A stretch of 63,318 nt of DNA, the filler included, from Sluysia triapertura (Eukaryota): assembly GCA_046118255.1 (NCBI GenBank). It is 5 parts of 5 records of this genome, joined end to end, with 100 filler letters (N's around TTAATTAATTAA, not from the genome) between each part and the next. Parts side by side here need not be neighbours in the genome. Positions count along the whole stretch, not along the records: positions 12,083 to 26,633 come from JBJNIA010255298.1; 4 more parts are not named here. One strand, 5' to 3'. The notes under the pieces are model-generated. The model was not told the DNA's origin, made no database searches, and saw only the letters and a program-made list of their open reading frames with translations. The position numbers and the translations under genes are program-made. This document shows, in pieces, positions 4,950 to 46,075 of this stretch (position 1 is its first letter; every line of letters starts with the position of its first letter).

Positions 4950-6287
4950 TTAAAAATTAGATTTTATGGGTTTCTTGAAAACAATAATATAACTGGTCTT
5001 ATAAAAATTACAAAATTTATCATTAAATTTAGCAAGTTTATTATACTTAAAATTTTTATTAACAATTTTGTGTTTAAGGCACTTAATAACTATTACTATG
5101 TGCCTCAGAGGGCGAATTAAACAAAGGTAAGACAAATTGATTGTATTATTAAACACACTAATCATTGTTGAAACCCAAATTTAAATCCTTACGTGGATAA
5201 ATCCTTTCATATTCTCCGAGCCTGGAATTTCCTCGAGTTTGAAATCATTTATTTCATAATTTCTAATAACTATCATTTTACAAAAAATATCTAAATGATT
5301 ATGAGATAATTTAAAATAACCGTTTTCAAACATAGTGATACTAAATAAAGTTATAATCAAGCATTTATTTCTAATACAATCATCTTTGACTTTGATTTCT
5401 ACATAATTATTAAAATAACAGTTTTCATACACAGTGATACTAAATAAAGTTATAATCAAACCTTTACTTATAACACGATCTACTTTAACTTTATTTATAT
5501 ATGTGACATTGCTTTTTATGACATATTCAACTCTAGCATCTTGGATACGTTTAACACCGTGCTTCGGATTAATGAAATAGGTAGTAATTTGATCTTCTTG
5601 GTAAATCGACAAGACAAGTATTGCATCAGCATTCATTATTTTACCAATATAAAATTTTTTAAAATAGTACTAACATAAACAGGAGCTAAATTCTCAGGTT
5701 TTTCTACTCTTTCGGAGTTATTGCTTTCCAGTAAAGAGAGTGGCTTCTTCGAATAACATTCAATGTCTAAACTATAAGACTTCTTAGTAAACATAGTTTC
5801 TTTGAATTTATGTGCGTGGGTGCTGTTCACCACAGAATCAGTACTGTCTTGAAACATTTCGACGGCTTCTTCTTGCGAAGCGTTACCTCCGAATATATCA
5901 TCACTGATTCGATTCACCATGATTATCTGTTTATCTTTAAATTCATATAAACTAATTTCATAGGATTGGAATCAGAACATAATTCGTATATTTGTATTTC
6001 TTAAACAAGATTAAATTTTCGTTTTCATATTGTATATCTCTAAAAAATTCATTTGAGTGAGTAAACTTGACTGCAGCCGAAATGATATAAAACAATTGAG
6101 GTTCAACGTCTGGTAGTTCCAATTGACTTAAATTATTCAAAACTTTCATAGAAATATTAAAATAGGCAAGTTTTTTAAACAACAATTCTAGTATACAGGC
6201 AAGAATCTCTATATCACCAGTTGCCTTTGAATATACATTTAAATTGGATGTTCCAGTTTCCATTTTAAGAAATAAAAAACGTATCAA
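4950..6287 (-). pseudogene. Run of four co-oriented intronless orphan ORFs (likely one decayed gene), cargo of cassette C
   Basis: ORFs 5958-6287, 5636-5920, 5181-5636, 4950-5165; a 33-aa internal duplication (LIITLFSITxxENxYF twice). Confidence 0.5.
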
Positions 6288-8016: not shown

Positions 8017-8330
8017 TGGCCAACCTTAAAATTTAAATTACCACTTCACATAGAATATCGCATTTTTTATTTTTGCATCTTGCTTTCTCAGATTAATTTA
8101 AAACATTAACATTTTAAAACATTTTTATTCACTATTTCACAACATCAGACTCACAATTTACACCTCAAATTATCAAATTTCTATTTCGAAATTAATCCAA
8201 AACATTTCAAGTTCACATTCCTTCAACACTCACATATTAACGCGTCTGAAAAATATTAAACTCATACTCTAAAACCATTCTAAACATTCTAAACATCCTA
8301 ATCCAAATAAAATTTCATTTAAATTAAATT
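8017..8330 (+). mobile_element. Arm B copy 1 (terminal TGT eroded)
   Basis: TGGCCAACC...CTCAAATTATCAAAT...ATTAATCCAAAACATTTCAAGTTCACA...; clearly homologous to the minus strand of 59490-59880 and 62470-62829. Confidence 0.8.
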
Positions 8331-8562
8331 TATATATTATAAGAAAATAAAGATTTACGTAATTTTTATTTATTATTTTTTTAAAGAAAATAAAGTTTTT
8401 GTGTCTAGAAATACAAAGAATTGTGTATTAATTTCATTATTATATAATTTTAAATCATTTTATTGTAATTAGTATTATGACTATTTTTATTTTTTATATA
8501 TTTTAGTATTATTTTCGTTATTATTACGGCATTATTAAATTTCATTATTATTAATTTTATTT

Positions 8563-8563
<1 letters not shown>

Positions 8564-8625
<62 letters not shown>
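8564..8625. repeat. (ATT)n microsatellite in the AT-rich spacer of cassette B1
   Basis: Direct reading. Confidence 0.9.
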
Positions 8626-8626
<1 letters not shown>

Positions 8627-8830
8627 CTACATTATTAGTATTAACATTATCATTATCATTTTAATCATTATTCTTGCATCATTTAAACTGGCGTTTAATC
8701 GACAGCTTAATTAAAAACATTTTTACATTACTTTATCAACTGTCAATTGATGACACTTACTAACCCAATTAATACAGCATTCTACACTTTCTACCACATA
8801 ATTATTTCATTCGATCATTTTAGTGTGAGT

Positions 8831-8960
8831 GGACGTCCAATCGTTTCTATTGTTGTACATTTTATTTCACAATAGACTAGACGGCCAATCAGAAGCCACT
8901 TAAAATCAACAAATTCTTATCTAATTGCTATCTATTTGGTAAATAGCACACTATAAAAAG
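8831..8960 (+). promoter_or_regulatory. Double CCAAT + TATA promoter module of cassette B1
   Basis: GGACGTCCAATC 8831-8842, GGCCAATCAG ~8883-8892, TATAAAAAG 8952-8960, ATG at 9042; homologous to 59007-59076 (minus). Confidence 0.6.
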
Positions 8961-9041: not shown

Positions 9042-10092
9042 ATGATTAGACCAAGTTCTTCAGAAATAAACAAAAATTCCAATTTACGTAAAAAGTTAAG
9101 TATATTAAAATGTTTTATCAATAATCAACTAAAGTCATCATAATCATTAAGCAATGTCAAATTAGATTATTTTACAGACCTCGATAATTATAATTCATCT
9201 TCAGTAATAGCAGTAACTTCTGTTCAAATATATATATAAAAGTTTGCTACCATAAATTCAACTTTGAATATCAATCTAAATTATTGACTATGTTATAGAG
9301 TTATTTGAGAGAGACTCATAATCAAGTTCAAAAAAATTTTATTTTAAATACAGATCGTGGTATTCATATAAAACAAATTGAATTTATTTTCTTTATGATC
9401 AATCATAATAGTACCTTTTATCAAAATGTTTCGGACGAAATTATAAACAAAATTCTAAATATCGTGTCTTTGCTCACAGAGAAATCTTTAGAACATCATG
9501 AAGTTAATTTAAAATTCATATTACTACAATCAATGTTGTACATAAATACTTTATTTATAACAAATAATATTTCATATGTTAGACAATTATGTAGATCATT
9601 AAGCATCCAAATCAAACAGAATTAATGTACGATGTTCAGAACGTTTGCGTCACAAACGGTAATATCATTAATCCATACTATGAAATGACAGACAATGATA
9701 CAAGTATCTCATCATCTCAATTATCAAGTAATGCAATCAAATTCGAACTTCTCACCGAAGACGTTGGCCAACGATATAAATTCAAAAAAATAAATATAAT
9801 GTATAAAGAAATCAAAACCTTACAACCGCAACTCGACGTTTTGATTAAAGAAAACCAAAATAATAAATCTGATGCAAGTATCGTTTCTCTTAATCAAAGA
9901 AGATACGTCACTAAACTAATATCTATTAGTTCAAATTCGACTTTGGTCACACATTACTGTTTAGCACAGTGCCTCTCCCAGACTAATGAATTAGGTTTAT
10001 GTTTGAAATTTGGTCAAAGCTGCAGATACTACCATGACGTTAAAGAAATTCACCATGATAAAATTGGAAAGTCCATTATACTCAACACATGA
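9042..10092 (+). pseudogene. Decayed intronless orphan ORF with C-terminal CCCH zinc-finger-like motif, cargo of cassette B1
   Basis: Broken frame from ATG 9042, then ORFs 9305-9625 and 9625-10092; motif CLSQTNELGLCLKFGQSCRYYH. Confidence 0.5.
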
Positions 10093-11982
10093 ATCGCTTA
10101 GATTTCCTCCTCGATACATTGAAGTTTAAACAATTTAGTGTGAATCTTGCAACCGTCAAGATACAACCAAGATATATTTCACCAATACTCTTGAAAACAA
10201 TTTAATATTCAAAGTAAATTTTAAATTTTATTATACACATGTAACTTATTTTGATCAATTATATTTAAGGAATCATCGGATCATTGACCTTATGGCGTGT
10301 TTAAGTTGCAATCAATGCCCTCAGAACGTAGAATATTTAATGACATTAAATATAAATATTAAATCTTTGTGTCTAAAAATAAATTAGTGTTCTGTCGTCA
10401 TCTTTATTTTTCAATTTTAAATAAATTTTGTGAATTAAGCAAATTAAATTTAACTTATTTGTTAAGTCGCAATAATGAAAATAATTTTAACATAATATTC
10501 GTAAATTGTAATAAGATCTGTAATTTCAAATCATTAAACAAATAAACGTTCATAACTTACTACCAAACCCACTAAATACAAAAATAAAAACTTTGATTTT
10601 CTCTTTCTGATTCATAAATTCAATAAAAAACGATAATAAAATAAATAAATTGAATATAAATTTACTTGTAAATTGCACAATAATACTTGCTTAGTGCTAG
10701 ATCGCGATTATAACAGATTATGTATTGTCTATGATTTTATGAATCAATTGGTTGGATGTAATGGCAAAGAATTTAGAAGATAAATGATCAATTTGTATCG
10801 GTTGGAGGGAAAATTACAGGAATCTACAATTATCTCTAAGTAAATACTGTGCAAAGTATTTGAAATATGCACAGCCTTATCCAAGAAAAAACTGTCCTTC
10901 AAACTTTCTACATATGAACACATTAACAAAAATTTAGACATAAGTCAGTATGAAATTAAATTCAGTAGTCGAAAACAATCGGTCAAATCAATACATCAAT
11001 TAACTCAAGATAAAATTCAAAAACTCACTTTCGAATGGAATCAGATGGAAAACCTGCCATACAATTGCGTATTATCGTCTGTATTTTCTATGCAGAATAT
11101 TTATATAACTTTGATAATAAATAATGAATCATTATATTGTTATGATATAATATTTAGTGTAATAATTTTAAAATTTTTAATAATGTTTGATTTTAATTTT
11201 ATGATGTAATTTCAAATTTTATAGTTGCTTTATATTTATTATTATTATTATATTTTAAAATTATACTATTCTAAGTTATTATTGTAAAATTACATTATTA
11301 TATTATGGGGTTTTTCATTTAATTTAAGCTTCTTGTCATTTAATTTAATTCGGATTTTTAGGCTTTAAGTTATAAATGAAAACGCAGAAGTTAATAATGA
11401 TGTAACAAAACAACAATTACAACAATCATTGATTAATAGCCTGTTTAAATATTATTGATTAATATTTATTGGTGACTATCAAAATACATTTTTATATAAT
11501 TATGTGCATTATTATTGGTGACTAACATATGTATTATGTAACTATCTATACAAAATTATTTGGATATTACATTTTTGTATGTGAGTTTTAATAGTTGTTA
11601 ATTTTATAAATTTTTAATTTAATTAAACTAACGTGATTGTAAAATAAAATAAATTTATAAAGCAAAATGTTTTAAATTAATTTTATTAATTGAAACTATA
11701 TAAGCATATACTTTTGCAATCAAAACACAATTTTTATAAATACAATGTTAATAATCGTTTTATAAAAATTTTGCTTAACATTCAAAGATTATTCAAGGAT
11801 CTCCATCCAGTTTCAATTTCATCACGATACTCTTTACCTTTAACATTTGTTTCGAAAGCTACGTTAGTTTAATTATTTTTAGGACGATATCTTAGTGTAT
11901 CATAGGTAAAATCTGACTCAAAATCATTTTTTAACTAATTTCCTGATCTTATCACAGATCAAACGAAAAATATATTTAAAAT

Positions 11983-12082: not shown

Positions 12083-14109
12083 ATTATGGACGAAGTATTG
12101 ATCCATGAGAAACTCTTTGCTTTACATATATCTCATTTGACTTCACATTATTAAATAAAACGTAATGTCTTTTAAGTATGATCCAAACCATTTTATCACA
12201 TTAAATAAGAGACACATTATTTGGAGATATTTCACAATCAATTGTATCAAAACCATCAAAACAGTTATTCTGCAAACATCTGTAAGCATAGTAGTCATTT
12301 TTACCACTAAATAAATAATGTTCATTTTACAATAAACTTAATTTTAATAAAATAATGTTAAAATAATTATTCATCTTAAAATAATTGTTAAAACAATTAT
12401 GCTCAAAAAATTACTAAGATTATAGTGCTTGAGTATTAATTCAAAATGAGATTACATACAGTTTATATAAATTCAAAATTTAATAACAAAGAAGAACCAA
12501 ATTTAAATTAAATTTGTATAAGTCATCATTTTAAATGAGATTCAATGAGGACAATATGAAATTAAAATTTGTAAACATTAAACCTTCCTGTTATGGTTAA
12601 GAAATTATCTTAAAATAAGAATTAATAATAATAATAATATGAAATCAAATTGTAAGAGCATAAAACGCGATCAAAATTAACTTAAATTAAAGATTTGATA
12701 GAGTAGACAAAATTATGTGGAATTAAAATTTATAAACATAATAGAATAAAATTATTTTAAATTATGAATTAATAACAATAACATGAAATTAAATTTTAAT
12801 AACATAAAATCCAATTAGAATTATCTTAAAAACACGATTTAGAGTTAAAAAATCATATTAAATTGGGATTAAAAAGAACTAGTATGTAATTAAAAATTAA
12901 TATTATTTTTGATAAAAACAGACTAGAAATAATTTTTATAATATTAATAGTGATAATAATTTTTATGAATAATTTTTATAATGAATAATTTTTATAATAT
13001 TAACATTGTGATTGGTAAATGAACTATTTATAATTTGTTCCTGTATATAATTTGTCCGATATAATTTTTTCTATATATAATTTGTGCAATATATAAAATA
13101 CATCTAATTATTAACTAAATAAATTATCTATAATTTGTAAAATATTTAAATATGACAAAATAATTTGCAACAACCACAATGACAGCAAAACATTTTGAGG
13201 TGATCAGCATATTATTAATTTCGGAGAAAATCTTCAACAAAATTGACAATCATTTTGTATTACTTGAAAACGCTTCAGTGAATGTGGAAAACGTTTCTGA
13301 TGCTTATCACTAAGACATTGAATTTAAAGGTAAGAATTATTTCTAGTCTTGAATAAAAATAAAATTTAAATCAATACTGTATTTACGAACTTTATTTAAA
13401 ATAGAAGTTAAATTTTCTAATACAAATTATATCATCTATATTCATTTATAATTTGCTTAATAAATAATTGTTTTTATAAATAATTCTTTTATTTCTTGTA
13501 TTAGGAAATGGGTTGAATATAAAGTCGCAAGGTAACGCTAAGTAAATTTTTTTTGGGATTTAGTAATTGTAAGTAAAATTTAATAAAATTTAGGATTAAC
13601 GTCAACGAAAATCTGTATAAAGTAATTAACCAAGTTCAATAATATAAAATAAAATTTAAGAATGTGGTGCATATTAGAACGTATATAAAATTTAAATAAA
13701 TAATCCTTGAAGAATTAAAGATATTTTTAAGCACTTCCATTTCAGACCATCAAAACGAGTATACGAATTCACACTTCTGGATAAGTAAATCTAATATAAA
13801 GTATTTTAATAATAAGACAATAAAAGGAGTTTATACAAGTAAAAGCTTTTACCTTCAAATACGTCTAAGTAGTATTATAAGATTAGAATATTATTAGAAA
13901 AGTCAAGGTATTATTAAGAATTTATATAAGTAAAGAAATTTAAATTGTTACTAAAAGTTATGTTTATAAGAGTTAAGAATTCATTACACGCACATTCAAA
14001 TTCTACGTAAGTTCAGTAAAGTAATTAAAGAGGCAAAAACATAACGCATAAATTTTAAAGATTTAATCGTTAACTAAAGAAGTTTTATTAGTTTTTAGGA
14101 CAAGCATTT

Positions 14110-15025
14110 TATTTATAAGATTAATTTTTTACATATATGCCAATGATGTTTCAAGTATAATCGGATCATATGGTTTTAAATACCATATATATGCTGATGA
14201 CGTTCAAATAAATGCTGAATTTGAAATGAATAACATAGAAAATACTATTCAAAGAACAGAAGAACTAGTATCTGAATTATTTGGAAATATATACTTGAAA
14301 ATCAATGAAGAAAAGTCAGAATTTAATCTTTAATAATAAAAAGCTGCAATACCAAAATAAATGAAACAAATGCGAAACAAAAAGTACGATATATAGGCTG
14401 TTATATGGATCCAAACATGAACATGGAAGAAAATATTAATTGTATTGTTAAAAGTGTAAATATCACATATTTGAAAATTTATTAATAAAGAAACAGCTAA
14501 ACTTTTTGTTCATTCATTGATAACTAGCAACATAGATTTTAACAATGGTTTATTGTATTCATTTTCATATAGAAAAGTAAAAAAATTACAATTAATAATT
14601 AATCAAGCAGCAAGACTAATTCTCCAAGTGGGAAGAAGATCTCAAGTAACACCTTTTCCTAAGGAATTACATTGGTTGCCAATAAAATCAAGAATAGAAT
14701 TCAAAATAATGACAATAATTTACAATAATTACGAGGAGGTCCTGAATAACTCTTAGAAATAATGCAAAAATTGGAAACCAAGATGAATATTTCATTGAGA
14801 CATAATAATAATCTATACAGAACTAAGTGACAGATTGTATATCGTTTATGTTTCAAAAAACACAACCAGTACTACCAGAGAATGTCAAATTACTGGAAGA
14901 TTATGAAATATTAAAGAAAAGGCAAAGTTGTTTCTGTTTCAGAAATATTATAATGAATGGTTTATTTTAAGCGCTTTTGAGTACTTACTTTGTAGTAGAT
15001 ATGAGCGCAATATAAATTAATATAT
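14110..15025 (+). mobile_element. 5'-truncated L2/Crack-type non-LTR retrotransposon remnant
   Basis: RT motif YHIYADDVQI (YADD at 14190-14201), LKINEEKSE, KKLQLIINQAARLI, ELHWLPIKSRIEFK; 3' tail AAGCGCTTTTGAG...GAGCGCAATATAAAT typical of the L2 group; several stops and frameshifts. Confidence 0.9.
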
Positions 15026-16509
15026 TTTTATTATTAATATTATATTAATTTTCATTTATTTTGGATATCGTTGTTCATTTCACAATTTGTTATTAAGTAC
15101 GGTTTTGTTTTTATTTATTTTATAACATTTTAATTTTGATTTTTTTTATGTTGTTGCTTTCGTATATGTTTAGTTTTAATTTTGATTTTATTATTATTTC
15201 ACAAAATAATGAAGTTATGGCAATCTGCGATGTGTCCTTGGTTCATTATTTAAAAAAAATTCAATATCAGCACCTTCTGACAAGGAATGAATGCGAATGA
15301 AGCAACAAATAATCATTTTGGATTTATTTAAATCATCTAAAATCAGAACTTCGTGGCACAATATAATTAATATTATCCTTGATGAAGCATATGATTATAA
15401 ACATTCGTAAAATATAACGAATTTTGAATTTATTTGTAATTTTGTTTATTCAAATATCGATAAAAGAAGATGGTTTATTAAAATATTGTAACACCTCCTC
15501 ATTCATTACATAATTCAACCTGTTTTTGTTACGTCAGACCATCTTTCGTGATGACTCATCGTCGATAATATTTCTGCCGCTGTTTCATATACTGTAGATT
15601 TTTCTGTAACGAGGAAAAGTGAATTGGCGTCATCAAAGATAAATAGAAATAGTCATCTACAAATTTTCTGTACATCATCATCATCATCATCATCATCACC
15701 ATCACCATTGAATATCTTTAATAAATAAATTCGTAGAAAAACAGATAAAATATTTGGTGTTTGCGTGTGTGAGTGTGTTCTATTGACAGTACAACGATAT
15801 TGTTAATTCTCAGTGTATTTCGCAGAATCTGACTGTTACTATAAATAATTTACTTTACACTCTGTTATAAATCCAGCAAACATATTTTCTTTACATTTGT
15901 ATTTTTCTTATCCCCGTTTATCGACTGCATCTTCATAATCGATCTACTTGAATAAATATTCAAATATTCATCATAATCTGTTCGCAGTTCTCACTATGAA
16001 TTGCGAAATGTGAAATTAGTATGAAGATTCAACAATAGCGATAAAATCAAAATAAATTATCTAAGAGAATATTTAAAGATATGTTGGTATCGTATCCATG
16101 GGCCACTAGTTCACCCATTCAGGCCCACACATTCATACTGCACTGAACCATAAACATTAATTTAAAATAACATAATAGATGAAGATGACGACATCGAATA
16201 TCATTTTTAAAAAATTTTATTGATCAAACAACACCTTAAAGAACATTTGAAATACTGAGGCTTTAAAATATACAAATTACTAGACTAAGACCATTTTTAT
16301 GATAAAATTCAACATTTTTCGAGGACTATGAAACTATTAATCAAAAGTGTATAAATGTTGGAAAATAACTAATTTCTCCAAAAAATGCTGGTGAAAGTAA
16401 AATAATAGATAAATATACTGAGATCCAAAACATACAGAAATTTTATTCATGTAGAATGTGATAACACAATTTACTACAAATCAAATATGTACAAACTGTT
16501 GTATGATTA

Positions 16510-16680
16510 CTCTGTCGGCCATGGATAAGCTTGTGGCACAAGTCTTTGATCTTGTCATCGCGATGCCATACTTTTATCAAGGTTTCACTAAGTTTCGTCC
16601 TCGTGATTGGTTTATGGGTAAAAACTTTCATTTTGACAATCTCCCACAGATTCTTTATGGGATTCATGTCTGGGTAGCAA
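16510..16680 (-). mobile_element. Tc1/mariner transposase C-terminal remnant
   Basis: PDMNPIKNLWEIVK...LSETLIKVW...CHKLI matches the SPDLNPIENLW motif and following helices. Confidence 0.8.
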
Positions 16681-17739
16681 ATATTAAAAAACCAAAGACA
16701 AACATATGTTTCCTGTCCAATGATTTGGGCACTGGAATTTTACGGAAAACTAGAATTTTTAAGAATTTAAGAATATTTAGAATTTTACCAAATGCTTATG
16801 ACCATTGTGGAGTAAAATTACTCTTAATGATAATAATAATACTCACAAATTTGATTAGCATATGCAGCAGAAAAGGGAACCAGAATTAAGATAAAAACAT
16901 ACAGAAACCCTGAATAAACCTAATAAATTTAACATATGTCAAATTCAAAAATAGATTAATTAATTAAAATATTGATCAACTTAATCAAGGCGAATAGTAT
17001 TGCAAAATAATGTTTGAATAAATGATAAATATGTATGAAAAAACTTTTAACAGAGCTGTGATTTGAATAAGTTTACGAGTAAGTAGCACTTTAATTGATT
17101 AAATGAGAAATAAAGTATTAATTTGCTTGTAGTTTGAAAGATGCAATGAGATGATGGATATGCATGAGAGTGATCTGAAATTGAACTCGTAAACATTTTG
17201 TTAGAATTTTAGAATCTTAAAAATGTTTTCCTTAAAAATGCATTCTGAATCACGGAAAATCGACGAAATTCGAAAATCTAAATTCTATTACTTATGCATT
17301 TAATAGAAAAATTAATTATTTTATTTGATAAGTACTTTTTATAGAATTACAGATCATGATCATGATGATAATTATAATGATGACGATGACGATGTTGATG
17401 CCACTGTAAATTTATTTGATGTTTGTTTTTATTAAATTATGTTAGGAAAATAACCTTAATAAATAAAATTTTTGGCAATTTTGATTAATAATTAACAATT
17501 TAATTTGTTATAAGCATTTTATTTATTGACTAATTTTATTACTGAATTTGATATTAATAATGGAAGAGTTATTCTGAATTTGAATTGCATTGTGAAATAA
17601 ATTAGTAACGATAATAATATTTTAATAAATTATCAAACAGTTTCTCATTCTGATGCATTTGTTGTTGTTGTTGTTACATTGAACTTAGACATCATAAACA
17701 ATTTGAACAACGCAAAAGGACTAATCAAATATGTATTTT

Positions 17740-19242: not shown

Positions 19243-21954
19243 GTTATTTAATAAATTTGTTAGTCGACAGAAATATTCACTACATTCACTCTACACTAAT
19301 ATTTACCTAATATAGTGTAATGTAAAAATAAAATAGGCATCATTGATGAATCAAGATAACAAAATAAGTGTATAAAATATTTGCAACAAAACAAAAAAAT
19401 GAAAGATACGAAGAATTCGTGCATAATGAGGAGTTTTATTAGCATTTTTGATGAAGTCTTATGAAGCACGTCAACGCAGATAACGTAAAATTTAGTTATT
19501 TTAATTAGATTTTATAATTCAAAATCAAAGTTATATATGTTCTGATGTTTACATACAATTACGTATAAATACACATAACATATATGTCAAAATATGTGAA
19601 AAATTAAAATTTTTAGTATATTGAATAACACACTATATTACAAATAAAAATCAATATTTTGTCAAAATCATTAATACTATGTCTGTATTTAATTATGTAA
19701 TTATTAGATTTAATATATATTAGATTTAATATATTATATATGGACTTAAAATATTAACCATACTGTTAGAAAAGTAAAGAATAAATCGAAAGTTTAGCGT
19801 GAGTTCACCAACGTACTGGGCTTACCAGTTAGGGCCAGCCGTCGGATTTGATAAATTAAAAGAAAATGTCAAGGATTACTGAAAAAGCCTTTAACTGTCC
19901 GGAGGTAAATTAGAATTAACGTTAATTAAAAAATGTTAATTAAATTCCTTTTCTTAAAAATTAATGATAAAGTATATTCGGTGATTTTACGTAGATTCTT
20001 TTATACGGAATCTTTAAATTGATTTTGCGTGGCTAGAAATAAACTCTAATCTTTTGAAAACATAAAAAGCGACTAATTTTATATTTAAAACTATAAAAGT
20101 TAAGATATAAACACAAGTAATTATTAATAATTTATTCTCTAATAAAAAAAATTTAAAAATATACATAAGTTTATAATAATAACATAATTTTACCAATTAA
20201 CTACGGGAGTTAATTAATAATAAAAATTTTAATATATTTTACGTGCGATCTGTGATAAAATCGAAAAAATTAATTAAAATGATTTTTCATAAGATTTTGA
20301 TAATTATACGCTGAGGTATCGTCCTTACAATAATTAACTAAAGTAAACTTTATATGAATATCGGATTCGAAAAATATTGTGGCGTAGCCGGATCAGAATG
20401 ATTTTCTAAATGGATTTGTAAAAGATACAACCAGGTAATTTTTAAGTTTTTAGAAAATGTTATTGTGTCTTTGATTAAAAAATGCTGTATATTTATATAG
20501 TTTTAATCCGACCTTGATCGGATTAAAACAAATGTTAAAATAATTTAATTAAAACAAATGTTAAAATTTTTTAATTTTAAAAAATTGATGTTTTACGTTA
20601 GTTCAATTGAAATTAAAACTAAAATTAAAATTAAATAAATAATTAAAATTAAATAATTACTTACAAAAAGTTCCAGATTATAAAAATTTCCAATAAAATA
20701 TAAAATAAATTAATAATATTTAATAATAGTATCAAAGATTGTTACAATAATATTTAATGAATACGAACAGGTACAAATTAATCAATAATTGTAATTGTTA
20801 GCATATCAGTAAAACAGGCACAAATTAATCAATAACAAATTAATCAATAATAAATAATTGTAATTTGTAATTGCTACAATATTTATATTAAGTTATTAAA
20901 ATTAAATTCATTGTAAAAATTAAATTTTAAACGAATAAATATTCAATTAAAATTAATTGTAAAATTAAACTTTTGTTTAAACGTATAAATTTCAAGAACA
21001 TGCCAACAAATGTGTAAACATACAAATTCTTCATATAACCACCATTTTTATTTATATTTCAAGCTTATTGTCTCGGAATAATGTTTGGAAAATTTTACTT
21101 TTGCAAATTATTCTACCTATACCAGTAACTTGATTTTTCCAACATTAATTCAATTTGATTCAAATAATTCATTTGTTAGTTTACATTTTTAAGTTTATAC
21201 CTTTTATAGGTAGAAAAAATTACTTAACTTTTAATTTATAATCCTTTATGTGGAACTTTTAAAGTGGTTTTGAAATATTTAATTACTAAAGATACTGATT
21301 ATATATTAATAAACCAAAATCCTATTAATTGATTATGTTGAGTTATCTTTCAAAATATTTAAATTAAATAGATATTAATTTTAATTAACTACAAAAATAA
21401 ATCAATTGTTTATATACTCCCTCTATCAAACATCAATAATTTTCTTAATTACTATTAATATTAATTATTCTTTCTGAAACTAAATGTTTTAAAAAGAAAA
21501 TCAAATTAAAAGCAAAAACCAAATAATTTATTAATTAAACAAAATATCAATTATAGATTCCTATTATTACAATTTTCTATCAGATGCTACTAAAAATGAC
21601 TAAATCGATTACAAATTAATATCAACACAAATTAATGATTATAATAATTACAATTTAACGTTATTATAAATTAATATTAGGCACTACTAAAAGTTATTGG
21701 ATCACTTACAAATCGAGATGATTATTAACACAAATTAATATTACAAAAAAAAATGATTAGATCGATTACAAACAAACGCTATTACAAATTAATATTATTA
21801 CAAAACTTTGTTAAGTCGTACTAAATAAAAATACTTAAAAGCAATTAAATTAAATACAAATTAATCTTATCACAGAATTTATTCTTTTGGTTGTTATTGT
21901 GTTTGTACAAATTTATAAGTGTTAAGATTATAAAAATTAGTCTGTTTTTGAATT

Positions 21955-23380
21955 TTATATATGAAATTCTGTATGCATCTTTTTAAGTGCAGGCCTAAGA
22001 TCTTCGTTTACATTCATGACGTAGATATAAGTTGAGGGCGTGCAAGCGAATTCAATGAAATAAATAGTCTTGTAAGTATATTTAAGGAAGAAAATTATGC
22101 AGGTAAACTTAAACTCATAATCACATAATCTAAGTTCTAGTGCCTTAACATATAGTGTATTATACTTCATTCCTAATTTATTGGTTGAAATTGCCATGGC
22201 TTTCTTTTGGAATTCATGGAGACTGAGATAATTATAGTTTCTTTCTTACTTAATACACTCGCTGAGATTATTTTTAGTTCTCTATAAGGGACGAGGCAAC
22301 TATGATAGCCATAAACATAGTATTTTGTTAATTTTTTAATTTTAAGCACATTTAATAATAACTGTTTAATTATCAACATATTGTCATAAAATTCAGTAAC
22401 AGGTTTATTAATTAATCTTAAAGTTTTTATACGGAGATTGGAAAAATAAAAGATGTAAACTTATATTCGGATTATAATTAAGACATTTTTGTTAACATTA
22501 ATTAAGTTATCTGAATTTTCGTATATATCTCTCACTTGATTCATTTTCCAGGTCACGTCCAATTCTACTAAAATAAAATTATAATAGATAATAAGTTTAT
22601 AACTAACAAAAAATAATGAGTCGTAATCATTCGAGCTTTGTTCAATTGTCACATCGATGGAGTAATTACTTAATCTCAAATCAGTTGAGGTATAGTTATT
22701 AGCTACAAGGTAGTCAAATGAATTGGTTCCTTTAACATTTAGTTTCTTATAATTAAATTTTGTTACAGATGGATTTTTATTCTCATATAGAATCATATAT
22801 AGTCATTAAGTTTAGAATTATCAGGATTACTTATGAATTCATTCGACATTTTCAATAGTTTTTCTCCCTTTTGTGTTTCGTCAAACTTAACTAACTTTAT
22901 TATATTATTAAAATCATCAAAACTACACAACAAGATATTTTGTTCAAATACATATGATATATCGAATAATCCTTGATTCGTAATAACTTTATTAGGATCC
23001 ACATTTAGCATTCTTAAATAAACTTCAAAATCTAACCTTATTATATCATCATTTACGCGTAAATTGTAAGTACTAATTTCTTCGAAACTGCTAACTAAGT
23101 AGTGTACACTGTCACTTGACAAAATGAAATAGTCTAAATCAAATACGATTAGATGTCTTATATTATTTTTAAACTCGTTCATATGCTTATTATCCAAACT
23201 CGACATATAAGATTTATTAAATAGTTTCTTTGTGCATTTGCCAATGTGATGACTTGATTGAGGATGCATTTTACCAGATGAATTTATGTTCTTAATTAGA
23301 TGATAATTGGCTGTCAAAATTTTTGTTATAACTCGTCTGGGTAATTTAATTGCTGTAATCGTATTTATTGAAATTTTCAA
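21955..23380 (-). pseudogene. Run of four co-oriented intronless orphan ORFs, cargo of cassette A1
   Basis: ORFs 22793-23380, 22461-22796, 22173-22379, 21955-22197; no recognisable family. Confidence 0.5.
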
Positions 23381-23595
23381 CTGTCTAACTAAATTAATTG
23401 AGTTTTATCTGGCAGTTTTTACGTTAAACATCAAAATTAGTTAATTGCCTTTGTGAAGAACTTTTCGATGAATCCAACTTTTCGTAAGTAGTCTGTCTGG
23501 AAAATTTAAATCGTTGGTATTAAAATTTTTATTGTGTATTGTCTAACTTTTGTGGTTACTATTTTTAACTTTTTGATGTTGTATTGTCCAGTCTG

Positions 23596-23708
23596 CCCAA
23601 TCTGATTGGGTGACGAAGAATTTAATTTTTATTTAACTATATACCATCATCATCAGTAATGATGTGCGGTGACAATGATGAATGAGATGTCACTACTGAT
23701 GATGGTGG
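23596..23708 (-). promoter_or_regulatory. Hairpin + inverted CCAAT module of cassette A1
   Basis: CCCAATC-T-GATTGGG 23596-23610; inverted repeat 23644-23658 / 23694-23708 (14/15 match). Confidence 0.65.
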
Positions 23709-26558
23709 CGACAATTTTCAATTTAAATTATTTTTATAAAAATAATTAATGATAAAATAATAAAAGTACAATGATAGTAATAATAATAATAAGAATAACG
23801 ACAACGATAATATTGTTATTATTATTTAAATAAAATTCACATAAATCTCTTGGGCATCATCAAACATGATCTTTTCTGTTGAAATCTTTACTTTTCTGAG
23901 ATATATAAAATAAAGGAAATAAGACAAATGTTGTATCGTGAAGGAACATCAACAACTAAGTGTATAATGTATCATATATGGTTGTTGCTTCACGGAATAA
24001 TAATGAAATCTTTTAAATTGTTTAAAGTTTGTTTGAAAGATGCAATGGTTTAGGTTGTTAATGAATTGAAGAATGTTAAGGTAGTTTATTGAAACTTAAT
24101 TAAGGTTTATACATTGAAAACAAGATTTATGCATTAAATTGAATAGTTTTAAATGCTTATTGAAAGATTGAATTTATTTTAATTTTGAATGATGATTACA
24201 AAATAAGTTTTAGTATATTATAATGTTGTTGTGAATGATGCATAGTGTGACTGAAATAAATTTAGGTCGGTGTTGTGGATTAAAGTTTTAAATGGAAATG
24301 ACATATGATTGTGAGGTATTTTTTTGGGATTAATTAATAATGCTATTAATTTCGTGATTTGTAAGGTTTATATTATGATTGCGATTTGTCTATTGAAATG
24401 TTTGGTGAATGAATGTTGAAGTTTGTTATGTTAGAAATGGTTGAGATATTAGGTGCTTTGTTGCTGTATATGAGTTGATAAGGTGTTATGATTATCTAAT
24501 GTTGATTTAAAGTATTTGAGCAAGTGTATTTCGGAAGTATAAAATATGATTTTTATGAGAATTGTGTTTTAGTGAAATTTGATTTATGAACGTTAGGTTT
24601 AATATTTTGATTGGGCTTGGATTATGAGTGTTGACCACTACAATATGAAATAATTATTATTAAAAATTTTTTATAACTATTAAATCTACACACAATAATT
24701 TCAGAAACTGCACTCTTTTGTACATTCATAAATTCATAAATTTCTAACTAAACATTTTAAATCATATCTTCATAAACACATTTGGAGGTGTAATCTATAA
24801 TTATTTCTCATAAATATTAATTTTTTTTATTTTGAAAATGTAAAATTAACATTTAATTTAAAATAATTTCTAAATATAATAATTACATATTCAACAATTG
24901 CATAAATATTTTATAGATTAAAATAAACTTATTGTTTTTTATTAAAATTTATAAATAACATGCTATTGTTAACTAAAGTTTTTGAAAAATTAAATTATAA
25001 AAGATTAATCAAGTAAAACAAAAAATATATATATATAACAATAATTAATTGATAAAATTTTAGCACGAAATTATTTTTGTAATTTTATAAATAATTAATA
25101 ATTAAAAGAATAACAATTTTTTTTAAATAATATTTTTTAAAAATTTTTTATTTAAAAGTTGCCTCTACAAGTAAGACAATACAAACAAATTTTAATTAAT
25201 AAAAAATTATTATTAACCTTGTTAATATTCTTGTCCTCCATTATTTTATACATTAATATTTTTAATTTAAATTTTATTTAATACATTACTTTGTTTTTAT
25301 TTCAAAATAAAACAAATACGAATTTTAAGAAATTTAATTTATCTTATAAAGTAAATTATTAGTATTATTTAGACAAAGTGAATGGTTTTAAGTAAATATA
25401 ACCCTTAATTTAATAAATAATAATTATAATTAAATAATAATTATAATAAATTCTTGTAAATTTTGTCTATGAACAGTGTCATTAATTTATTGAGTACAGT
25501 TGCAGTTGTTTTAAGAAAACTTTGCTGTTAATTTTTATTCTTGTCACGTGATAAGATATTGCAGTAGTACCGAAATGAGTTTTGAACGGTCATTTAATAA
25601 GAATAATTTTATTATTCAATTTGTATTATTCAGTATATATCATAGTATAAATTGTAGAACTTTAGTTGCTCATCTGACAAAAAGAATATAATAAAATAAA
25701 ATAAAAATTAGAATAAAAATAAAATGTGCACTTGGTGCACTTAATAATAAATGATAATATATGTACAATTAAAATGTGTGTATTATAGTAATCCTTTGTA
25801 AATGAAAAACAGTAATAAAATAGTAATTGGTAGTGCAAAATAGTTATAAATATTTAATAATATTATAAACAAGATCAATAAATCAATAAAGTTAAAAAAA
25901 TATAAATTAAAATAAATTATATTTTTAACAAAAACCTTCTTTATAAATATTTAAGTAAATTTTTCTCCTAATTCTTCATATATTTTCATCATAAAAATGC
26001 TTTAAATTTTTGTATCTTTAATTATTTAAGCATTGTCTTTTAAATCAAGGTAGAATAAATTAGACAATATTTTGTTACAATTTTTCTTATTCCAGTCACT
26101 CTCTCCATTTCACTTTTATATTGAAACATTTTTAATATAGATTTAAACTTATATTATTTATTCAAATAAATCTCATTAATTTAATTATTTAATATAAAAT
26201 ATTAAATAATTTTCTATGATAAAAATATCAAAAATAAATAAATCTGAAGTTAGAATATACTTTATTAAACTTCTTATAACAAATTTGTTTAATTAACATA
26301 TTAGTTAATTTATAAAATAAAATTCTAAGATTGTTAATTTTGATAATTAATTTTTAAGTAAATTAATATTATTATATAACGTAATATCATACATTTATTT
26401 TTAAATTATATTCATGTGTAAAACAATACAATTCTTATTTATAATTTTCCCTTAACAATATTATAATTTACATAAGATATTACTGTTACAAAAACATATG
26501 CAGTACATTTTTTTAAATTACGTCGGAACTCATTATATTTTCCGCGAATCATCTTAAA

Positions 26559-27350: not shown

Positions 27351-27389
27351 TTTCATCAAGTATGTCGCATTTGATATTTAATTTTATTT

Positions 27390-27485
27390 TACTCACTGAA
27401 CTATCAGTCACTTCTAACAATTTTATTTCACTATGGTCAATTATACTATTATTATTCGAATATGGCACTTTAGGCCTTTACCTTG
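27390..27485 (-). mobile_element. Truncated tRNA-containing mini-LTR
   Basis: Minus strand AAAGGCCTAAAGTGCCA...AAATTGTTAGAAGTGACTGATAGTTCAGTG, ending inside the tRNA D-arm. Confidence 0.7.
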
Positions 27486-27867: not shown

Positions 27868-28475
27868 CTAATCACGAATCATTCTTTGTTTACCGAAAGT
27901 CATACCACTTTGATTGGCACCTTTATTAGATCCCATTTGAAGTCCAATCACAGAATCGTTTTTTGCATCAAGACCAGAGAAATCTCTTTTATTCTCTGTG
28001 GCTTGTTTTGGACCTAAACATGGACCATTGTATCCTTTAACTTGACAAGTACGACCTAATGCAAATATCATTTTTGTTACTGAACCAATATCTCTTAATT
28101 CTAACAAATCGATGGTTTGACATAGATCGACCTCAGGAACTCCATATTTAAGCAAAGCATCCAAAAAATTTCCAATATTATCCATCATTTTGAATGGTGC
28201 ATTTGTATTTTCGTTAATTTTTTTAACAGAACCACATTCAATTTTGTTGATCAATCTAAATATGACAAATGAAATTTGATTTAAATAAAAATGTACTGGC
28301 AAAGAATAACTCCATTTTGTAAAAGATTTTCATAACCAATACTTCTATCAAGACTTTTGCCGAGAATTTTTTCAATCCATTGTAAAACTTGTTCTTCTTG
28401 TTCAGGATCTCGTTTTTCTGCTATTTTCTTTGATAATTCAATTTTAATTCCACTGGGAGGAGCTCGGTAAGACAT
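27868..28475 (-). CDS. Myophilin/transgelin/MP20-like calponin-homology protein (188 aa, 2 exons)
   Basis: Exons 28297-28475 and 27868-28255, 41-nt GT-AG intron, in-frame splice (ILCQ/LINK); CH domain plus C-terminal calponin repeat IGLQMGSNKGANQSGMTFGKQRMI. Confidence 0.93.
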
Positions 28476-34800: not shown

Positions 34801-37800
34801 ACAATAATAATATATACTTTAAGCAATACTTAAGGAGATTACAATATACCTTAGTAATACAAAATTTAATTAAAAATTGATCTAGCCTTTTACGTCCAGA
34901 ATAAAAATTAATAAAATTTGAGTAAGATTTTATAATCTCCTAAATTATAGTGAGACTTATTAACAATGAAACTACTTGAGCACGGAAGTTCAAGTGAGAT
35001 TGAAATTTGAAAATGAAATTATAGTTATGGAGTCAAAATTTCCTTTTCTCTTTATACAGAAATTTGAGCAGCCATATTACTTGTTTTTATTTTGATGAAT
35101 TTAAACAAAATAAAATTTTTTAAATGAAATTATTTTAGTTATTTTATTTATTATATAAAATATAAATTAATTATTTTATTTTAAAACTTAAAAATAAAAA
35201 TAATAAAACAAAACCCAACTTATAATAAAAATAACTCAACATTAGACTAATTTTCTATATCAAATATAAGATTGCCAAATGTCAGTTTTGTATAATTGAG
35301 TTTCAATAGGCAATTTTGTAAATTTACTGAGCTTTTTGTATTTGACAAATATCATTGATTTTTTTATTCCAAAATATATATTGGAATAACAAATATAAAA
35401 TGCGTAACAGGAATTATCAAATAATTAAAAAATGATTAATGTTTTTACTTATGAAAAATCAAAATATTTTATTTATTTACTATAACAAATAGTATATGAA
35501 AGTTTAAAAATCGATATTAAAATCTATTGAAACCATTATTCATTGTAATTCTTAATTTCAACAATCTGTATTAAATTCTAAACAAATTTAGTTAAGTTTG
35601 AAGTGATTAAAAAAGATGTCGTATATGTTTTATGAGATAGTGATAAGGATTAAAAAGCAACTTTATGATTTTATTTTTTGCATGTTTATTTGATGTGATT
35701 TAAGCAAAATTTGAATTGTATTATAATTTAAAAATAACTAACAAATTGCACATACATTATGATTAATTTTGATGTTGGAGGGAGATATTTTTCATAACAT
35801 ATGAAAAAATGTTAACAATTCTATTATATTTTATTAAAATATTGTAATTCAGTAGCAATAAATAAATAAATAAATTAATAATAATGATAATCATTACATA
35901 TAGATATGCAAACTTGAAGATGCTTTAGAAGATGCTAAGAAACTTTCAGAAGAACAACAAAGCAACGAAGATACATTAAAAAGAAAATTAGGTTTAGTGT
36001 ACATTTTTATAAACTTAAGTTTTGAAATACAACTTTTAATTAATATTAATTAATTTAATGAAACGTTTAGCACAAAAGAAGACAGATTTATAAAAGCAAG
36101 GAAAAGTGGGAAAGAAAAATCATATGTCAAGTATCATATCCAATTCAGAAATATTTCTTCATTTGTTTTTTCCAAATTAGTAGAATAATTATTCGAGCAA
36201 AATATACATACTTGTATTAACACAATTTCTACCACGATTTTGTGTACATGTTGGGATACAGGCCTAAAGTGCCATGTAATATAATGGACTATAGTAATCT
36301 AACAATTGTTAGACGGGGCTGATAGCTTAGTGGGTAAAGCATCGAACTGCGCAGCGAGAGGTCCTGGGTTCGATCACCGGCCAGTCCATTTTATGAAGTC
36401 TAACATTTGATGAGCCAACGCATAGAATACCATTCTGATGCTGAATTAAATGATATATAAGATGTTTGAGGTCAGACATAATTGAATTGGGTGAGATATG
36501 TTGAGATATGTTAGTCGGGGCTGATAGTTCAGTGGATATAATTTAACTATGCTACAGTGCAGTAAGAGGTCCCGGGTTCGTTCCCCGGTCAGTCCATTTT
36601 ATGAAGTCTAACATATACCTATTTTTGTACCAGGTACATGTATTTAGATCTAGGATGAGCTGAGGGAAAATTATATCGCTAAATAGATTTAACAATTATT
36701 ATACAAAAAGTCAAAAAATGCATTGAGAAAAAATGGTTAAACTTAGAAAATAATTTCAAATCAAAATGCTAAAAGGTGTCTTTTGACATCTTTGATAGAA
36801 ATAATGTTAATTAATCAATTAATGAATATGGTGAAGATGTGTGTGTATGTGCGTATTATATCGTTGAATAATAAATTATCACTTTTATTTTATATAATTT
36901 CAACAAAATATGCGGCAATTCAAGCTTTTCAATAACCACAAATAATTTTCACAAATTATAAATTTTGATTTTTCTTGACCTTTTGTGTATATGTGTGTGT
37001 GGTTTATAATACATTATGGTCAATAACCTTTCAATTTCCATTATAATCAATTTAAATATGTAATAATTTATAAGAATCGTATTTTGTACTATGACTATAT
37101 ATTTTTCATATTAGTATTCATTTTTTAGCAGATTTTTCATCTCCGACTACTTTTAATCTATAAATGCTTTTTGAATACTAATTAAGTGTCAGAAATTATT
37201 GTCTTCTTTCTGATTTCTGCCTTATTTAAAAATGTTTCTGATTGCCTTTTTGTGTTTATAATATTGTTCCATTTGTTAGCCAATAGAAAATGATTCTACA
37301 ATTCAATCAAATGATTGCAATAATATAGTAATTTCATTGTTGTTTTATTGTGGCCAATAATTATTTACATTTTCGATAAATCCGAACTTCTCTAAAAGTA
37401 ATTTCAATTTCTTCCACGCATTATTTTGTTATAATAATGGTTTGGCCATATTATAATTAATTAAATTAATTTTTAGTTTGTATAATTCTAAAATTAGCCT
37501 TTAAATTTTTATAATTTTAGAAAACTTTCAACGAAATCAAGAAAAACTCAGTCACATAACTCGTGAAAATGAAGAATTGCGTAAACGACCAATGTCTTGT
37601 GATCATTATCGAGAAATCGATCAATTAAAAAATCACAAAGAAAAACAAGAACGTCAGATTTTGGATTTAAAAAATCAGGTACATTTTATTGTACTTATAA
37701 ATATCAATAGTATATATTTTGTTAAAAAATGACTTGTTCTAGCTAGAAGATAAAGATCGTATTTCATCACAACAACAAATTCAAATCAATAAATTATTGG

Positions 37801-38623: not shown

Positions 38624-39230
38624 TGCTGGGGTTGGTAAAGGATAAAGGTAGATGTAAGGGTCAAGACTAAGGATAACATAATAAGTTCAACATTATTAAA
38701 GAATTAAGATGAGGCATTATGAAGAACTGTAATTGTAGGATAAGCATATAAAATATTTAAATCGAAATAAAATAATGAGAAATACGAAGAAAAGAACCCT
38801 TTAAAAGGTTTTATTTGGTAAAATATTAAAGTACATTTGTTAATTAATTTTAATTAAAATTTGTTTAATTTGATAACTCAGTAAAAACGTTTGCTCATTA
38901 TAAAGTGATATTGAATTTAGTATATAACATTGAGTTTTATTAATCTTTTTAATGATGAAGTATGTAAATAATGTAAAAATTAGTTACTTTAATTAATTTT
39001 TATAATTTAAAATTGAAGCTTAATATGTTCCGATGTCTAAGTATTAATAAAGTATATATCAAATTAATGCTTATAGAGAAACAAATTCAAATGCGTTATT
39101 GACGCACAGCGTATTAATGCGGAATACTCTTGTGAGAAATAAATTCATTATTTCATTAATTTTATCTTTAAATTAAATTGACAAATTATGCTATTATTTT
39201 AAAAGCAATGTAACAATGATTTTAAATTTT
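38624..39230 (+). repeat. Dispersed ~600-bp repeat F, copy 1 (TG start)
   Basis: Colinear with 44067-44640, e.g. AAATATTAAAGTACATTTGTTAATTAATTT in both. Confidence 0.8.
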
Positions 39231-42121: not shown

Positions 42122-42278
42122 TGTTGGGGTAAAAGGCCTAAAAGTGCCATTTGGTAAAATTGAATATAATAAAAATGAAATTGTTAGACGGGGCTGATAG
42201 CTCAGTGCTAGAGCATCGACTGCGCAGACGATGGTCCCGGGTTCGATCCCCGGTCAGTCCATTTTACGAAGTCTAACA
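42122..42278 (+). mobile_element. Solo tRNA-containing LTR with perfect 4-bp TSD
   Basis: GTAC|TGTTGGGG...GTCTAACA|GTAC; internal tRNA-like 42191-42261 with acceptor stem GGGCTGA/TCAGTCC, A box, B box GGTTCGATCCC and following TTTT; anticodon arm distorted. Confidence 0.9.
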
Positions 42279-43555: not shown

Positions 43556-43749
43556 TTAATGCTATTAATTATGCCTCTGTCAATCTATTGTTTTTTTAAA
43601 TTGTTTGTTGTATTGTAAAATTCGCTACTAATGACTGCCTTTTAAAAGTTTTTATTATTCCCTTTATAATTATAATCAAATCATTAGAATCCCCTTTGAT
43701 GATTTGTAGCTTTGCAATCACATGATAAAGCTTGTCAAATTTTATTAGG

Positions 43750-44066
43750 TGTAGAACTGAAAAATTTGATTAATGATCATCCATTATTTTCTTTTACTCT
43801 ACTTTATGTATTTTTACTTAAATTAATTCTCACATTAAAATAATAATAATCATCATCAATATTAACATATATAAAAATAATGAATTTAACTTTAGGTTTC
43901 AGAATTCAATTGATTTTCATTTTGTTCAGACCCAATTTCTAAAGGAAAAAATATTTAACGCTCTCATTCTGAAACAAACCATTCCACTATCATTTCAAAT
44001 TTTTATCTAGTTTCTCCTCTTTTATAACAGTGGTCTTATGTTCAATTCATTATCTTTTCATTGTTC
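43750..44066 (+). repeat. Dispersed repeat H, copy 1
   Basis: Colinear with 61110-61410 (TTCTCACATTAAAATAA, AAAATAATGAATTTAA, ATTCAATTGATTTT, ACCCAATTT). Confidence 0.75.
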
Positions 44067-44640
44067 TGTTGGGATTAGTGAAGGATAAGGAGTCATGATA
44101 TAGAAACAGAATAAACATCATTGAGGAATTGAAATGAAGTATTATGATAAATTGTAATAACAAAATAAGCGTTTAAAATACATGAATCAAGACAAGATAA
44201 TGTAAAATATGAAGAAAAAAACCTTTATAAAGTTTTATTTTTTAAATATTAAAGTACATTTGTTAATTAATTTAATTAAAATTTGTTTAATTTGATAACA
44301 ATTAATAATAAATGTCTGCTCATGATAAAATAATATTAGACTTAATATGTAATAATGAGTTTTATTAAAATTTTAATAATAAAGTGTTGCTAAGAACGTC
44401 GAAGTAGATAACGTAAAAATGAGTTATTTTTATTAGTTTCTTTAACTTAATTATAAAGTTAAATATTTACCGATGTTTAAGAATAAGTAAATTGTGTATT
44501 AAATTAATACTCGTGAATATACCAATTCAAATATGTTATTGATGCATAACATATTAAACAAAAGATTTCTATGAAAAATAAATTTATTATTTCATTAATT
44601 TTATCCTTAATTTAAGCTAATAAATTGCGTTATTAATAGA
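44067..44640 (+). repeat. Dispersed repeat F, copy 2 (starts TGTTGGG)
   Basis: Colinear with 38624-39230; abuts repeat H exactly at its TGT start. Confidence 0.8.
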
Positions 44641-44955: not shown

Positions 44956-45915
44956 TTAATTTACATATATAGTAATGAAAAAACAATTGAATATTAAAAA
45001 TTTGTCAATTATTACATCTGCATATATTGTTTTCCGATCCGCGTCCCAATGTACATCATGAATACTACAGCAAAGCAACAATCTAAAAAAGATAGAATAT
45101 TTATATAAAGGTATTATTGAAATTATTTATACGGTTGTTTTTAAACTTTTGTCTAGAATTACCATCCGAATCATAATCATTTTCATTATCATTGTCGATA
45201 CCATCACTGTTATTTTTAATGCTATCACTAGTAATAGTGTTCGAGGAACGATCAATGTTGACATCATTAGGAGCCGGTAAATCATCGTACTTATGACTTG
45301 AAATAATTTCTTTATAATTTATAATAATTTCTTTATAGAAGTTTTATTAGTAATAGTTGATTGAGAATGATCTCTAGGATGAGGAGAGATGTCTATTGAC
45401 ATAAATACAATTTTCACATTAATGTTAGTGACAACTTGATTATTACAATCGATAGACATAAATGAATTGTTTGGAATAAGAAATCGCAAAATCCGCGTTA
45501 AATTATTTGAAACGCAGTTCATAATCAAATTCGCATAGTTTTTACCTTTCTCTTTAATGTATGAATAATTATAACATGGTAATGTAGTAAAGTGATTGCT
45601 TGACAATGGTTTCATGGTGTTTGATTCTCTGTTTTTAAAACATTTATCTTCTGAAACTTTTTTTAAAGCATTATGTTCGTTATCTTCAATAAAATGTTCA
45701 AAAATTACATAAAATGAACCGCTAGCGACATTTTTTAGTTCTCGTCTTGAAATATTCACCTCTTCATTATCTGGAGTATGAAATATTGTAACATCGTTAG
45801 GAAAAGAATCAAGTATTCTATCATGTACATAATATTTGTCTAATTTAGTATCGAATATTTCCATAACTTTGTGGTAAGTTTTTAGTAACTCTGTGTAAGA
45901 CTGTTTTGAAGACAT
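44956..45915 (-). pseudogene. Intronless orphan ORF, cargo of cassette A2
   Basis: 198-aa ORF from ATG 45915; frame broken by a short tandem duplication (TATAAAGAAATTATT) near 45320; remnants continue to a TAA/AATAAA at ~44956. Confidence 0.55.
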
Positions 45916-46075
45916 AGATAATATGATGATTTAGCTGACAAATTTTTAATGCTGTTAAAAATTATTATATGAGCTGCTAATTTTACTAATTTTTGTTATT
46001 TCTAAATTTTATTGAGTTGAAAAATTGTGACTAAAATAAAATTTTATTTTCCTGTCCATCTATTTTTACTTGCCA

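Follow-up and report, generated by a model that had tools for sequence, protein, structure and literature searches.

A mis-drawn 4.3-kb unit and a repeated transposon-type end beside orphan reading frames in Sluysia triapertura

Does a single complete transposable element occupy positions 20378-24642 of the DNA stretch from Sluysia triapertura studied here (the window, 63,318 nucleotides long including filler, from assembly GCA_046118255.1)? The initial annotation proposed that it does, from a TGTGGCG left end and a 4-bp target-site duplication (TSD), ATAT, and read it, together with a short derivative at 62136-62829, either as a giant solo long terminal repeat (LTR) with a gene inside or as a Ginger-like DNA element. 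We find that 20378-24642 is no element: the claimed unit is a mis-drawn boundary, and its right-hand kilobase alone is a real, repeated transposon-type end. This end, hereafter the arm, occurs in six copies, namely three A arms with termini at 24642 (C1, minus strand), 47175 (C2, minus) and 55485 (C3, plus), and three B arms with termini at 59880 (C4, minus), 62829 (C5, minus) and 8020 (C6, plus). The window consists of five contigs of 11.7-14.6 kb each, joined by identical N spacers, with a GC content of ~24%, and all repeat and arm comparisons below set it against itself.

The letters and coordinates of the proposed unit are correct, with ATAT before TGTGGCG at 20378, CCACTACA followed by ATAT at 24642, and a span of 4265 bp. 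A repeat aligning at 20378 and continuing leftward past it had been named beforehand as the observation that would speak against the unit, and this is what we observe: 20378 sits inside a repeat, S, whose segment 20226-20345 matches 11982-11860, and S is collinear with 11982-11590 on both sides of 20378 (Table 1). Alignment with the collinear part scored 47 for 20378-20520 (0/500 shuffles above 32) and 56 for 20378-20700 (0/500 above 53). Among real stretches of the window, the predicted partner ranked first of 1232 for 20385-20520 (47 vs 35) and second of 1230 for 20520-20660; for S blocks beyond 20660 it was not among the top 8 windows. Identity is 69% left of 20378 (105/153) and 62% from 20378 on (160/256), with a poorly conserved patch at ~20345-20445, and in a word-diagonal test the predicted S diagonal shares the top rank among 1633 bands (24 words). 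The band tied with it, at 54750-55120, was rejected, as it consists of low-complexity words and its alignment is not significant (16/300 shuffles). Independent insertions cannot have an outer flank in common, and the C1 and C6 cassettes, in both of which S occurs, carry different arms and open reading frames (ORFs), so that they are no simple duplication of one insertion.

The claimed ATAT duplication is within chance. Left of the arm in this contig, ATAT precedes 1 of 10 TGTGG sites, 1 of 16 TGTRG sites and 1 of 29 TGTNG sites, and at an ATAT frequency of 0.0146 the chance of such a flank is 14% (TGTGG) to 35% (TGTNG). Other details reported for the left part fared better: the 12-bp perfect stem is present, one base to the left of the place quoted for it, and 8 of the window's 11 ACAAATTAAT matches (whole-window expectation 3.1) fall within 20773-21865. 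A separate stretch at 729-818 matches 21595-21677 within the ACAAATTAAT block (0/300 shuffles).

The proposed short derivative was also read correctly (TGAT before TGTGGCG at 62136, CCACCACA followed by TTAT at 62829, span 694 bp), and its left end is a copy of an internal arm motif. The 19 bases at 62132-62150, the supposed duplication TGAT included, agree with 23700-23718 at 17 positions and match nowhere else in the window (0.01 matches expected). At 23700-23718 this motif forms one strand of a conserved hairpin, and in C5 the predicted fold likewise pairs it, there with the stretch on its left, though not significantly (z -0.6). The probability that a 4-mer lies within one mismatch of TTAT is 0.15. 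Nor is TGTGGCG a left end common to both units: 20378 and 62136 share 7 bases only, and their alignment, which does not start at the termini, is equalled by 9/200 shuffles. C5 is an arm whose promoter and ORF were either lost or never present.

Given the collinearity of S through 20378 (inside blocks 0/500 shuffles, rank 1 of 1232), the internal nature of the 62136 site, the mere seven bases common to the two left ends and the likelihood of the duplication arising by chance, a complete solo LTR or Ginger-like element at 20378-24642 with a short derivative at 62136-62829 is very improbable, even though its ATAT flanks are exact, its ends are of TGT...ACA form, no TGTNG site in the contig other than 20378 carries ATAT, and the dip in S conservation leaves some room for a duplicated junction. 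Two other ideas on the boundary were tried and dropped: the right flank as a continuation of the second S copy, as at an empty site, is off-register and weaker (9/300 shuffles vs 1/300 for the inside sequence), and repeat R as the far end, behind the C1 and C2 ORFs, has no supporting TSD.

The right-hand end, by contrast with the left, belongs to a family with a sharp terminus. Among A arms the aligned stretch measures 1.05-1.13 kb and reaches from the terminus as far as a CCAAT box; among B arms it measures 0.4-0.9 kb. The TGTRGTGGYCAAC terminus is intact in four of the six arms, and TGTRGTGG is found 8 times in the window against 0.91 expected, with a T before the initial T at seven of these eight sites. 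Homology stops at the terminus, and 14 of the 15 pairings of outer flanks show no relationship, C3 vs C4 being the exception (4/300 shuffles). From the terminus inward, the modules follow in the order G-poor body (3-7% G and 17-21% C), AAT tract, hairpin (A arms) and CCAAT box. The A-arm hairpins have z values of -4.1, -5.3 and -5.1 and rank 3, 4 and 1 among the 637 loci of an unbiased scan, with the tRNA at rank 2; 4 of 20 stem pairs are changed on both sides (14/500 shuffles, from three sequences only). A and B arms resemble each other weakly (0/200 shuffles), a likeness to which shared composition may contribute.

Arms of this kind are not confined to the six copies. An unbiased skew scan returned 13 G-poor segments, 10 of which start <=30 nt from TGTNR (background 0.27-0.31) and six at TGTRGTGG (background <0.01), and further arm types lie at 1574, 7274, 48774 and 50147. 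The window holds many diverged arm families with one end type; arm patterns had no match in the viral or metagenome contigs searched. A 305-bp unit at 49843-50147 encloses a GTA microsatellite between inverted TGTRGTGG ends, lacks a TSD and is followed by decayed frames.

Inward of the arms, in the same orientation and 1.0-1.35 kb from the terminus, lies a long intronless ORF that differs in every copy. Nine frames in the window reach 150 codons or more (shuffles yield 0.01 frames of such length), and seven of them start at a distance of 0.99-1.85 kb behind the start of a same-strand arm. The three longest (386, 203 and 203 codons) each follow one of the A arms, 1238-1338 nt behind it. These ORFs bear no relation to one another, C1 against C3 and C2 included, and several are broken; in C1, the cargo gene probably continues, in decayed form, in three more open stretches, reached through a frame change, a stop and another frame change. 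The one recognisable cargo is a TCTP piece, intronless and frameshifted, behind the arm at 7274. For the C1 ORF, no homolog was found among 1.84 billion representatives or in viral contigs, and its structure model was unusable (predicted local distance difference test score, pLDDT, 38). The C2 and C3 ORFs had no homolog in a 5.8-billion set covered at near lengths only, and a PHROGs search with 12 proteins gave no hit (best E 0.0046). In the ESM Atlas the best values were 0.81 for C3 and 0.91 for the second part of C4, with recognition below threshold, and these are leads only. The C4 ORF looked Gag-like by eye, an impression that gained no support: there was nothing from Pfam, the single-sequence model was poor (pLDDT 51), and Foldseek returned no match. 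A 108-bp internal tandem duplication (56881-57049) lies inside the 386-codon ORF.

What, then, are the arms? We favour, tentatively and at somewhat less than even confidence, the reading that they are promoter-carrying ends of non-autonomous LTR elements of gypsy type that hold cargo. The segment 23600-24642 would be the 5' (U3-like) end of a long LTR from one of several related families, its terminus made by a gypsy-type integrase presumably supplied in trans. The CCAAT box would drive the ORF, the ORFs would be cargo gained by template switching and now decaying, and repeat S, downstream of the ORFs in C1 and C6, may be the distal part of the element, with a true far end left of 20226. The TGTNR start expected of a gypsy-type LTR is seen intact in four of six arms, and in the available text of PMC2836005 TGTNR is the terminus of both Gypsy LTRs and Gingers. 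LTR-integrase activity with a 4-bp TSD is present in this genome, as the tRNA-bearing LTR at 42122-42278 carries the GTAC duplication, in line with the initial annotation. LTR-mediated capture of partial mRNAs, with retrocopies as the product and cargo gained by template switching, is described in the accessible part of Tan et al. (PMC5131818), and the intronless TCTP piece is as expected from such capture. In the portion of PMC6431247 available, Ogre LTRs measure 1.9-6.5 kb and giant gypsy-like elements with extra ORFs occur in a planarian.

We keep this reading tentative because no paired LTR, shared R-U5, primer-binding site (PBS), pol or TSD was found, and several observations weigh against it. 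Behind the ORFs, the contig runs on for 11.5 kb in C1 and 7.6 kb in C2 without a second direct arm, and LTR-mediated capture should leave both LTRs (PMC5131818, available text); two-LTR elements longer than the contigs of 11.7-14.6 kb would not fit in them, and none was seen within them. After the CCAAT box there is no shared R-U5 or PBS: CA-(0-3)-TGG is present in C1 and C3 only (as CA-NN-TGG at ~1.33-1.36 kb) and in none of C2, C4 and C6, and the only polypurine candidate is a purine run 4 nt before C3. A Pfam scan that took in 107 of the 108 window ORFs of 62+ aa detected no gag, pol or integrase in the vicinity of the arms, and no pairing of intact termini shows a 4-bp TSD. No conserved far end in ...CA with a 4-bp TSD was seen on the contigs, 20378 and 62136 being internal, and such an end may lie off them. 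In addition, B-arm hairpins are weak (z -0.2 to -2.0), and a single DNA element would explain the inward-facing C3 and C4 more easily. The arms could also read the other way round, through CCAAT, hairpin, AATAAA and a G/T-rich U5, in which case the ORF would lie antisense within a variable U3.

That inward pair lies at the centre of a second explanation, possible though unlikely, in which a cut-and-paste DNA element, of Pack type and moved by a Ginger/TDD-like integrase, has arm A at one end and arm B at the other, with an imperfect terminal inverted repeat (TIR) of 13 bp, an inward promoter at each end and cargo ORFs; 55485-59880 would be a whole copy, and C1, C2, C5 and C6 the ends of broken or longer ones. 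It accounts for C3 and C4 better than the LTR reading does, their inverted termini matching at 11 of 13 bases round convergent ORFs with stop codons 8 bp apart, and it agrees with three A plus three B arms in the window, with the weak A/B likeness, composition permitting, and with a 5-bp flank match, one mismatch allowed, between C3 and C5. On the other hand, the pair has no TSD (flanks TATT vs ACAC), its TIR is far under the 40-270 bp of Ginger1 and the 45-297 bp of Ginger2/TDD given in the available text of PMC2836005, and its targets are neither CCGG nor RTATAY. C1 and C2, moreover, lack a B partner in their contigs, no transposase was found, and there are at least four further arm types. 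We consider rather unlikely a more far-reaching reading, in which a dense system of integrase-mobilised expression cassettes uses TGT-ended arms with a conserved hairpin and CCAAT promoter to capture and express unrelated intronless orphan genes: 55485-59880 would be a complete two-promoter, two-gene unit, ~ten arms per 63 kb would lie behind most long ORFs, much of the lineage's supply of new genes would come from this system, and no described superfamily would fit it.

Alternatively, the arms might no longer be mobile at all, being old transposon-derived promoter modules spread by ordinary duplication and gene conversion together with fast-evolving host orphan genes. Arms only 65-80% identical, two worn termini among six, the lack of a TSD or partner end, and long, partly intact ORFs are compatible with this, yet it is made improbable by four termini perfectly kept though the bodies differ by 30%, by homology that stops at the TGT, and by ORFs mutually unrelated, which is not expected from gene duplication. 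Rolling-circle transposition was considered as well, the arms then being non-autonomous Helentron-type (HINE/DINE-1-like) elements and the ORFs transduced downstream DNA. The T before the initial T at seven of eight TGTRGTGG sites, a microsatellite and then a hairpin in the expected order, the lack of a TSD, and the link of such elements to gene duplication (PMC4067079, available text) speak for it. The Helentron-associated HLE2 elements have an 11-15-bp sub-terminal inverted repeat (subTIR) pair according to the same text, and such a pair was found in none of the six arms, whose first 13 bases match inverted at <=9/13 in five arms and at 10/13 in the worn C2, ungapped. With a hairpin stem of ~20 bp rather than 5-10, homology that runs past the hairpin to the CCAAT box, and no Rep/helicase hit, we regard this explanation as quite improbable.

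Table 1. Positions of the arms, their reading frames, repeat S and other features in the window (empty cell, nothing reported; dot, no strand).
Feature	Position	Strand	Remarks
C1 arm A	23600-24642	-	~65-72% identical to 46115-47175 and 55485-56622; homology stops at CCAAT box
C1 terminus TGTAGTGGTCAAC (TGTNR type)	24630-24642	-	outer flank ATAT; identical in C3, 11/13 in C4 and C5
C1 G-poor, C/A-rich body	23790-24629	-	6% G, 20% C
C1 AAT/ATT tract	23736-23830	.	at matching place in C2, C3, C4 and C6
C1 hairpin, ~20-bp stem	23643-23712	-	conserved in three A arms
CCAAT box, palindromic in C1	23596-23610	-	last block common to A arms; putative promoter
C1 cargo ORF	22793-23404	-	203 stop-free codons, 158 aa from first ATG; no homolog
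C1, three more open stretches	21955-22802	-	113, 95 and 96 codons
C2 arm A	46115-47175	-	worn terminus; then 203-codon ORF 45319-45930
C3 and C4 pair	55485-59880	.	4396 bp; arm A and arm B facing inward round two convergent ORFs
C3 arm A	55485-56622	+	
C3 386-codon ORF	56823-57983	+	
C4-side ORF	57992-58888	-	one internal stop
C4 arm B	59010-59880	-	
C5 arm B	62132-62829	-	400 bp 80% identical to C4, then AT-rich tract and internal motif 62132-62150; no ORF behind
C6 arm B	8020-8890	+	worn terminus; then ORFs 9299-10092 and 10844-11209, then repeat S
G-poor arms with TGTGA or TGTAG starts	1574-1884; 48532-48774; 60800-61084	+; -; -	then decayed coding-like sequence
TCTP copy	5184-5971	-	frameshift; 99-bp tandem repeat after its end; 1.3 kb behind TGTGGTGG arm at 7274
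Repeat S, copy 1	20226-20650	+	traverses claimed left end 20378; downstream of cargo ORFs in C1 and C6
Repeat S, copy 2	11590-11982	-	truncated by contig end
Claimed left end TGTGGCG	20378-20384	+	no boundary; CGTGATG in second S copy
12-bp perfect stem	20500-20529	.	private to this S copy, absent from second copy
Three ACAAATTAAT in short tandem units	20773-20844	+	
Degenerate local repeats with five ACAAATTAAT	21611-21865	+	part matches 729-818
Repeat R, ~590 bp	38625-39215; 44067-44640; part 19344-19570		TG...CA ends in one copy; behind C1 and C2 ORFs, same orientation
Repeat Q	43733-44056; 61088-61401		both copies start TGTCAAA
tRNA-bearing LTR (solo)	42122-42278		GTAC TSD; Helenus-like
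Decayed reverse transcriptase 3' end	14067-15020	+	RVT_1 E 2.8e-4
Myophilin/transgelin host gene	27868-28329	-	nearest flatworm proteins 55-60%

Among the other features of the window, the reverse transcriptase remnant carries motifs that we take to be L2/CR1-like, and 16443-17020 with 61496-61625, which has no Pfam hit, is probably a Tc1/mariner remnant, going by a motif, next to which lies a repeat. The myophilin encoded in the window is nearest to flatworm proteins (55-60%). Rfam gave two tRNA-like matches only across the window. A probable two-LTR form of the tRNA-bearing LTR, with a short internal part, lies at 36250-36613, and there are pieces at 4-99 and 27388-27480. Animal Helenus elements likewise show a duplication in the available text of PMC10886601, and the list of phyla in that part of the source does not include flatworms.

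Compared with known systems, the arms resemble Gypsy-type LTRs (Ogre, planarian Burro and the LTR retrocopies of PMC5131818, as far as the available texts go) in their TGTNR terminus, in promoter boxes ~1 kb in, in partial intronless host-gene cargo (TCTP) and in falling into several diverged families. They differ in that no paired direct LTR, shared R-U5/PBS, gag/pol or TSD was found in the window and in that each copy carries a different orphan ORF. With Ginger1 and Ginger2/TDD (Bao et al., PMC2836005, available text) they share TGTNR termini, and the 4.4-kb unit at 55485-59880 is in the Ginger size range. In contrast to Gingers, they have a 13-bp imperfect TIR and two convergent orphan ORFs without an integrase ORF; no integrase was hit in 107/108 ORFs, a gene that a non-autonomous copy would lack. 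TIRs of ~40-300 bp were not seen (20378 vs 24642 agree at 5 of the 7 first bases, C3 vs C4 at 11 of 13), nor was a 4-bp TSD at CCGG/CCGT or RTATAY, the flanks being ATAT, TATT, GTGT and ATAA, with 0 of 7 inward pairings duplicating 4 bp. Because TIR length and target sequence both depart from those of Gingers, membership in that group fails. The initial annotation was therefore right in part: an LTR-type or Ginger-like cargo class remains likely, because each arm has a TGTNR terminus of integrase type and a gene behind it, whereas the left end at 20378 and assignment to Ginger itself do not stand. HINE/DINE-1 elements, in the available parts of PMC4067079 and PMC11417382, have in common with the arms a T/T-like junction, a microsatellite, a hairpin, the lack of a TSD and neighbouring duplicated genes. 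Unlike them, the arms have no subTIR pair, a much longer hairpin, and homology that runs on to the CCAAT box; the hairpin is one of the A arms and does not lie at the terminus. Mutator and Pack-type TIR elements are like the arms in a promoter per end, convergent ORFs and cargo; the arms differ from these by their TGT termini and by lacking long TIR identity and a 9-11-bp TSD.

We have not filed the arms as Ginger, solo LTR or HINE because for each of these a defining feature was looked for and not found; the arm family is real and unclassified. A literature search of partial coverage returned no description of the arm-plus-orphan-ORF layout, of an ORF inside an invertebrate LTR, or of cargo in Ginger elements. 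The claimed unit as drawn matters little. If the arms are a gene-carrying element, however, integrase-type ends with promoters of their own ahead of unrelated orphan ORFs, numbering ~ten per 63 kb, would show concretely how a flatworm-like animal can acquire orphan genes. They would also allow the link proposed between inverted LTRs and Ginger-type TIRs to be tested. LTR and TIR elements are already known to capture cargo, and the arms work like such a cargo element.

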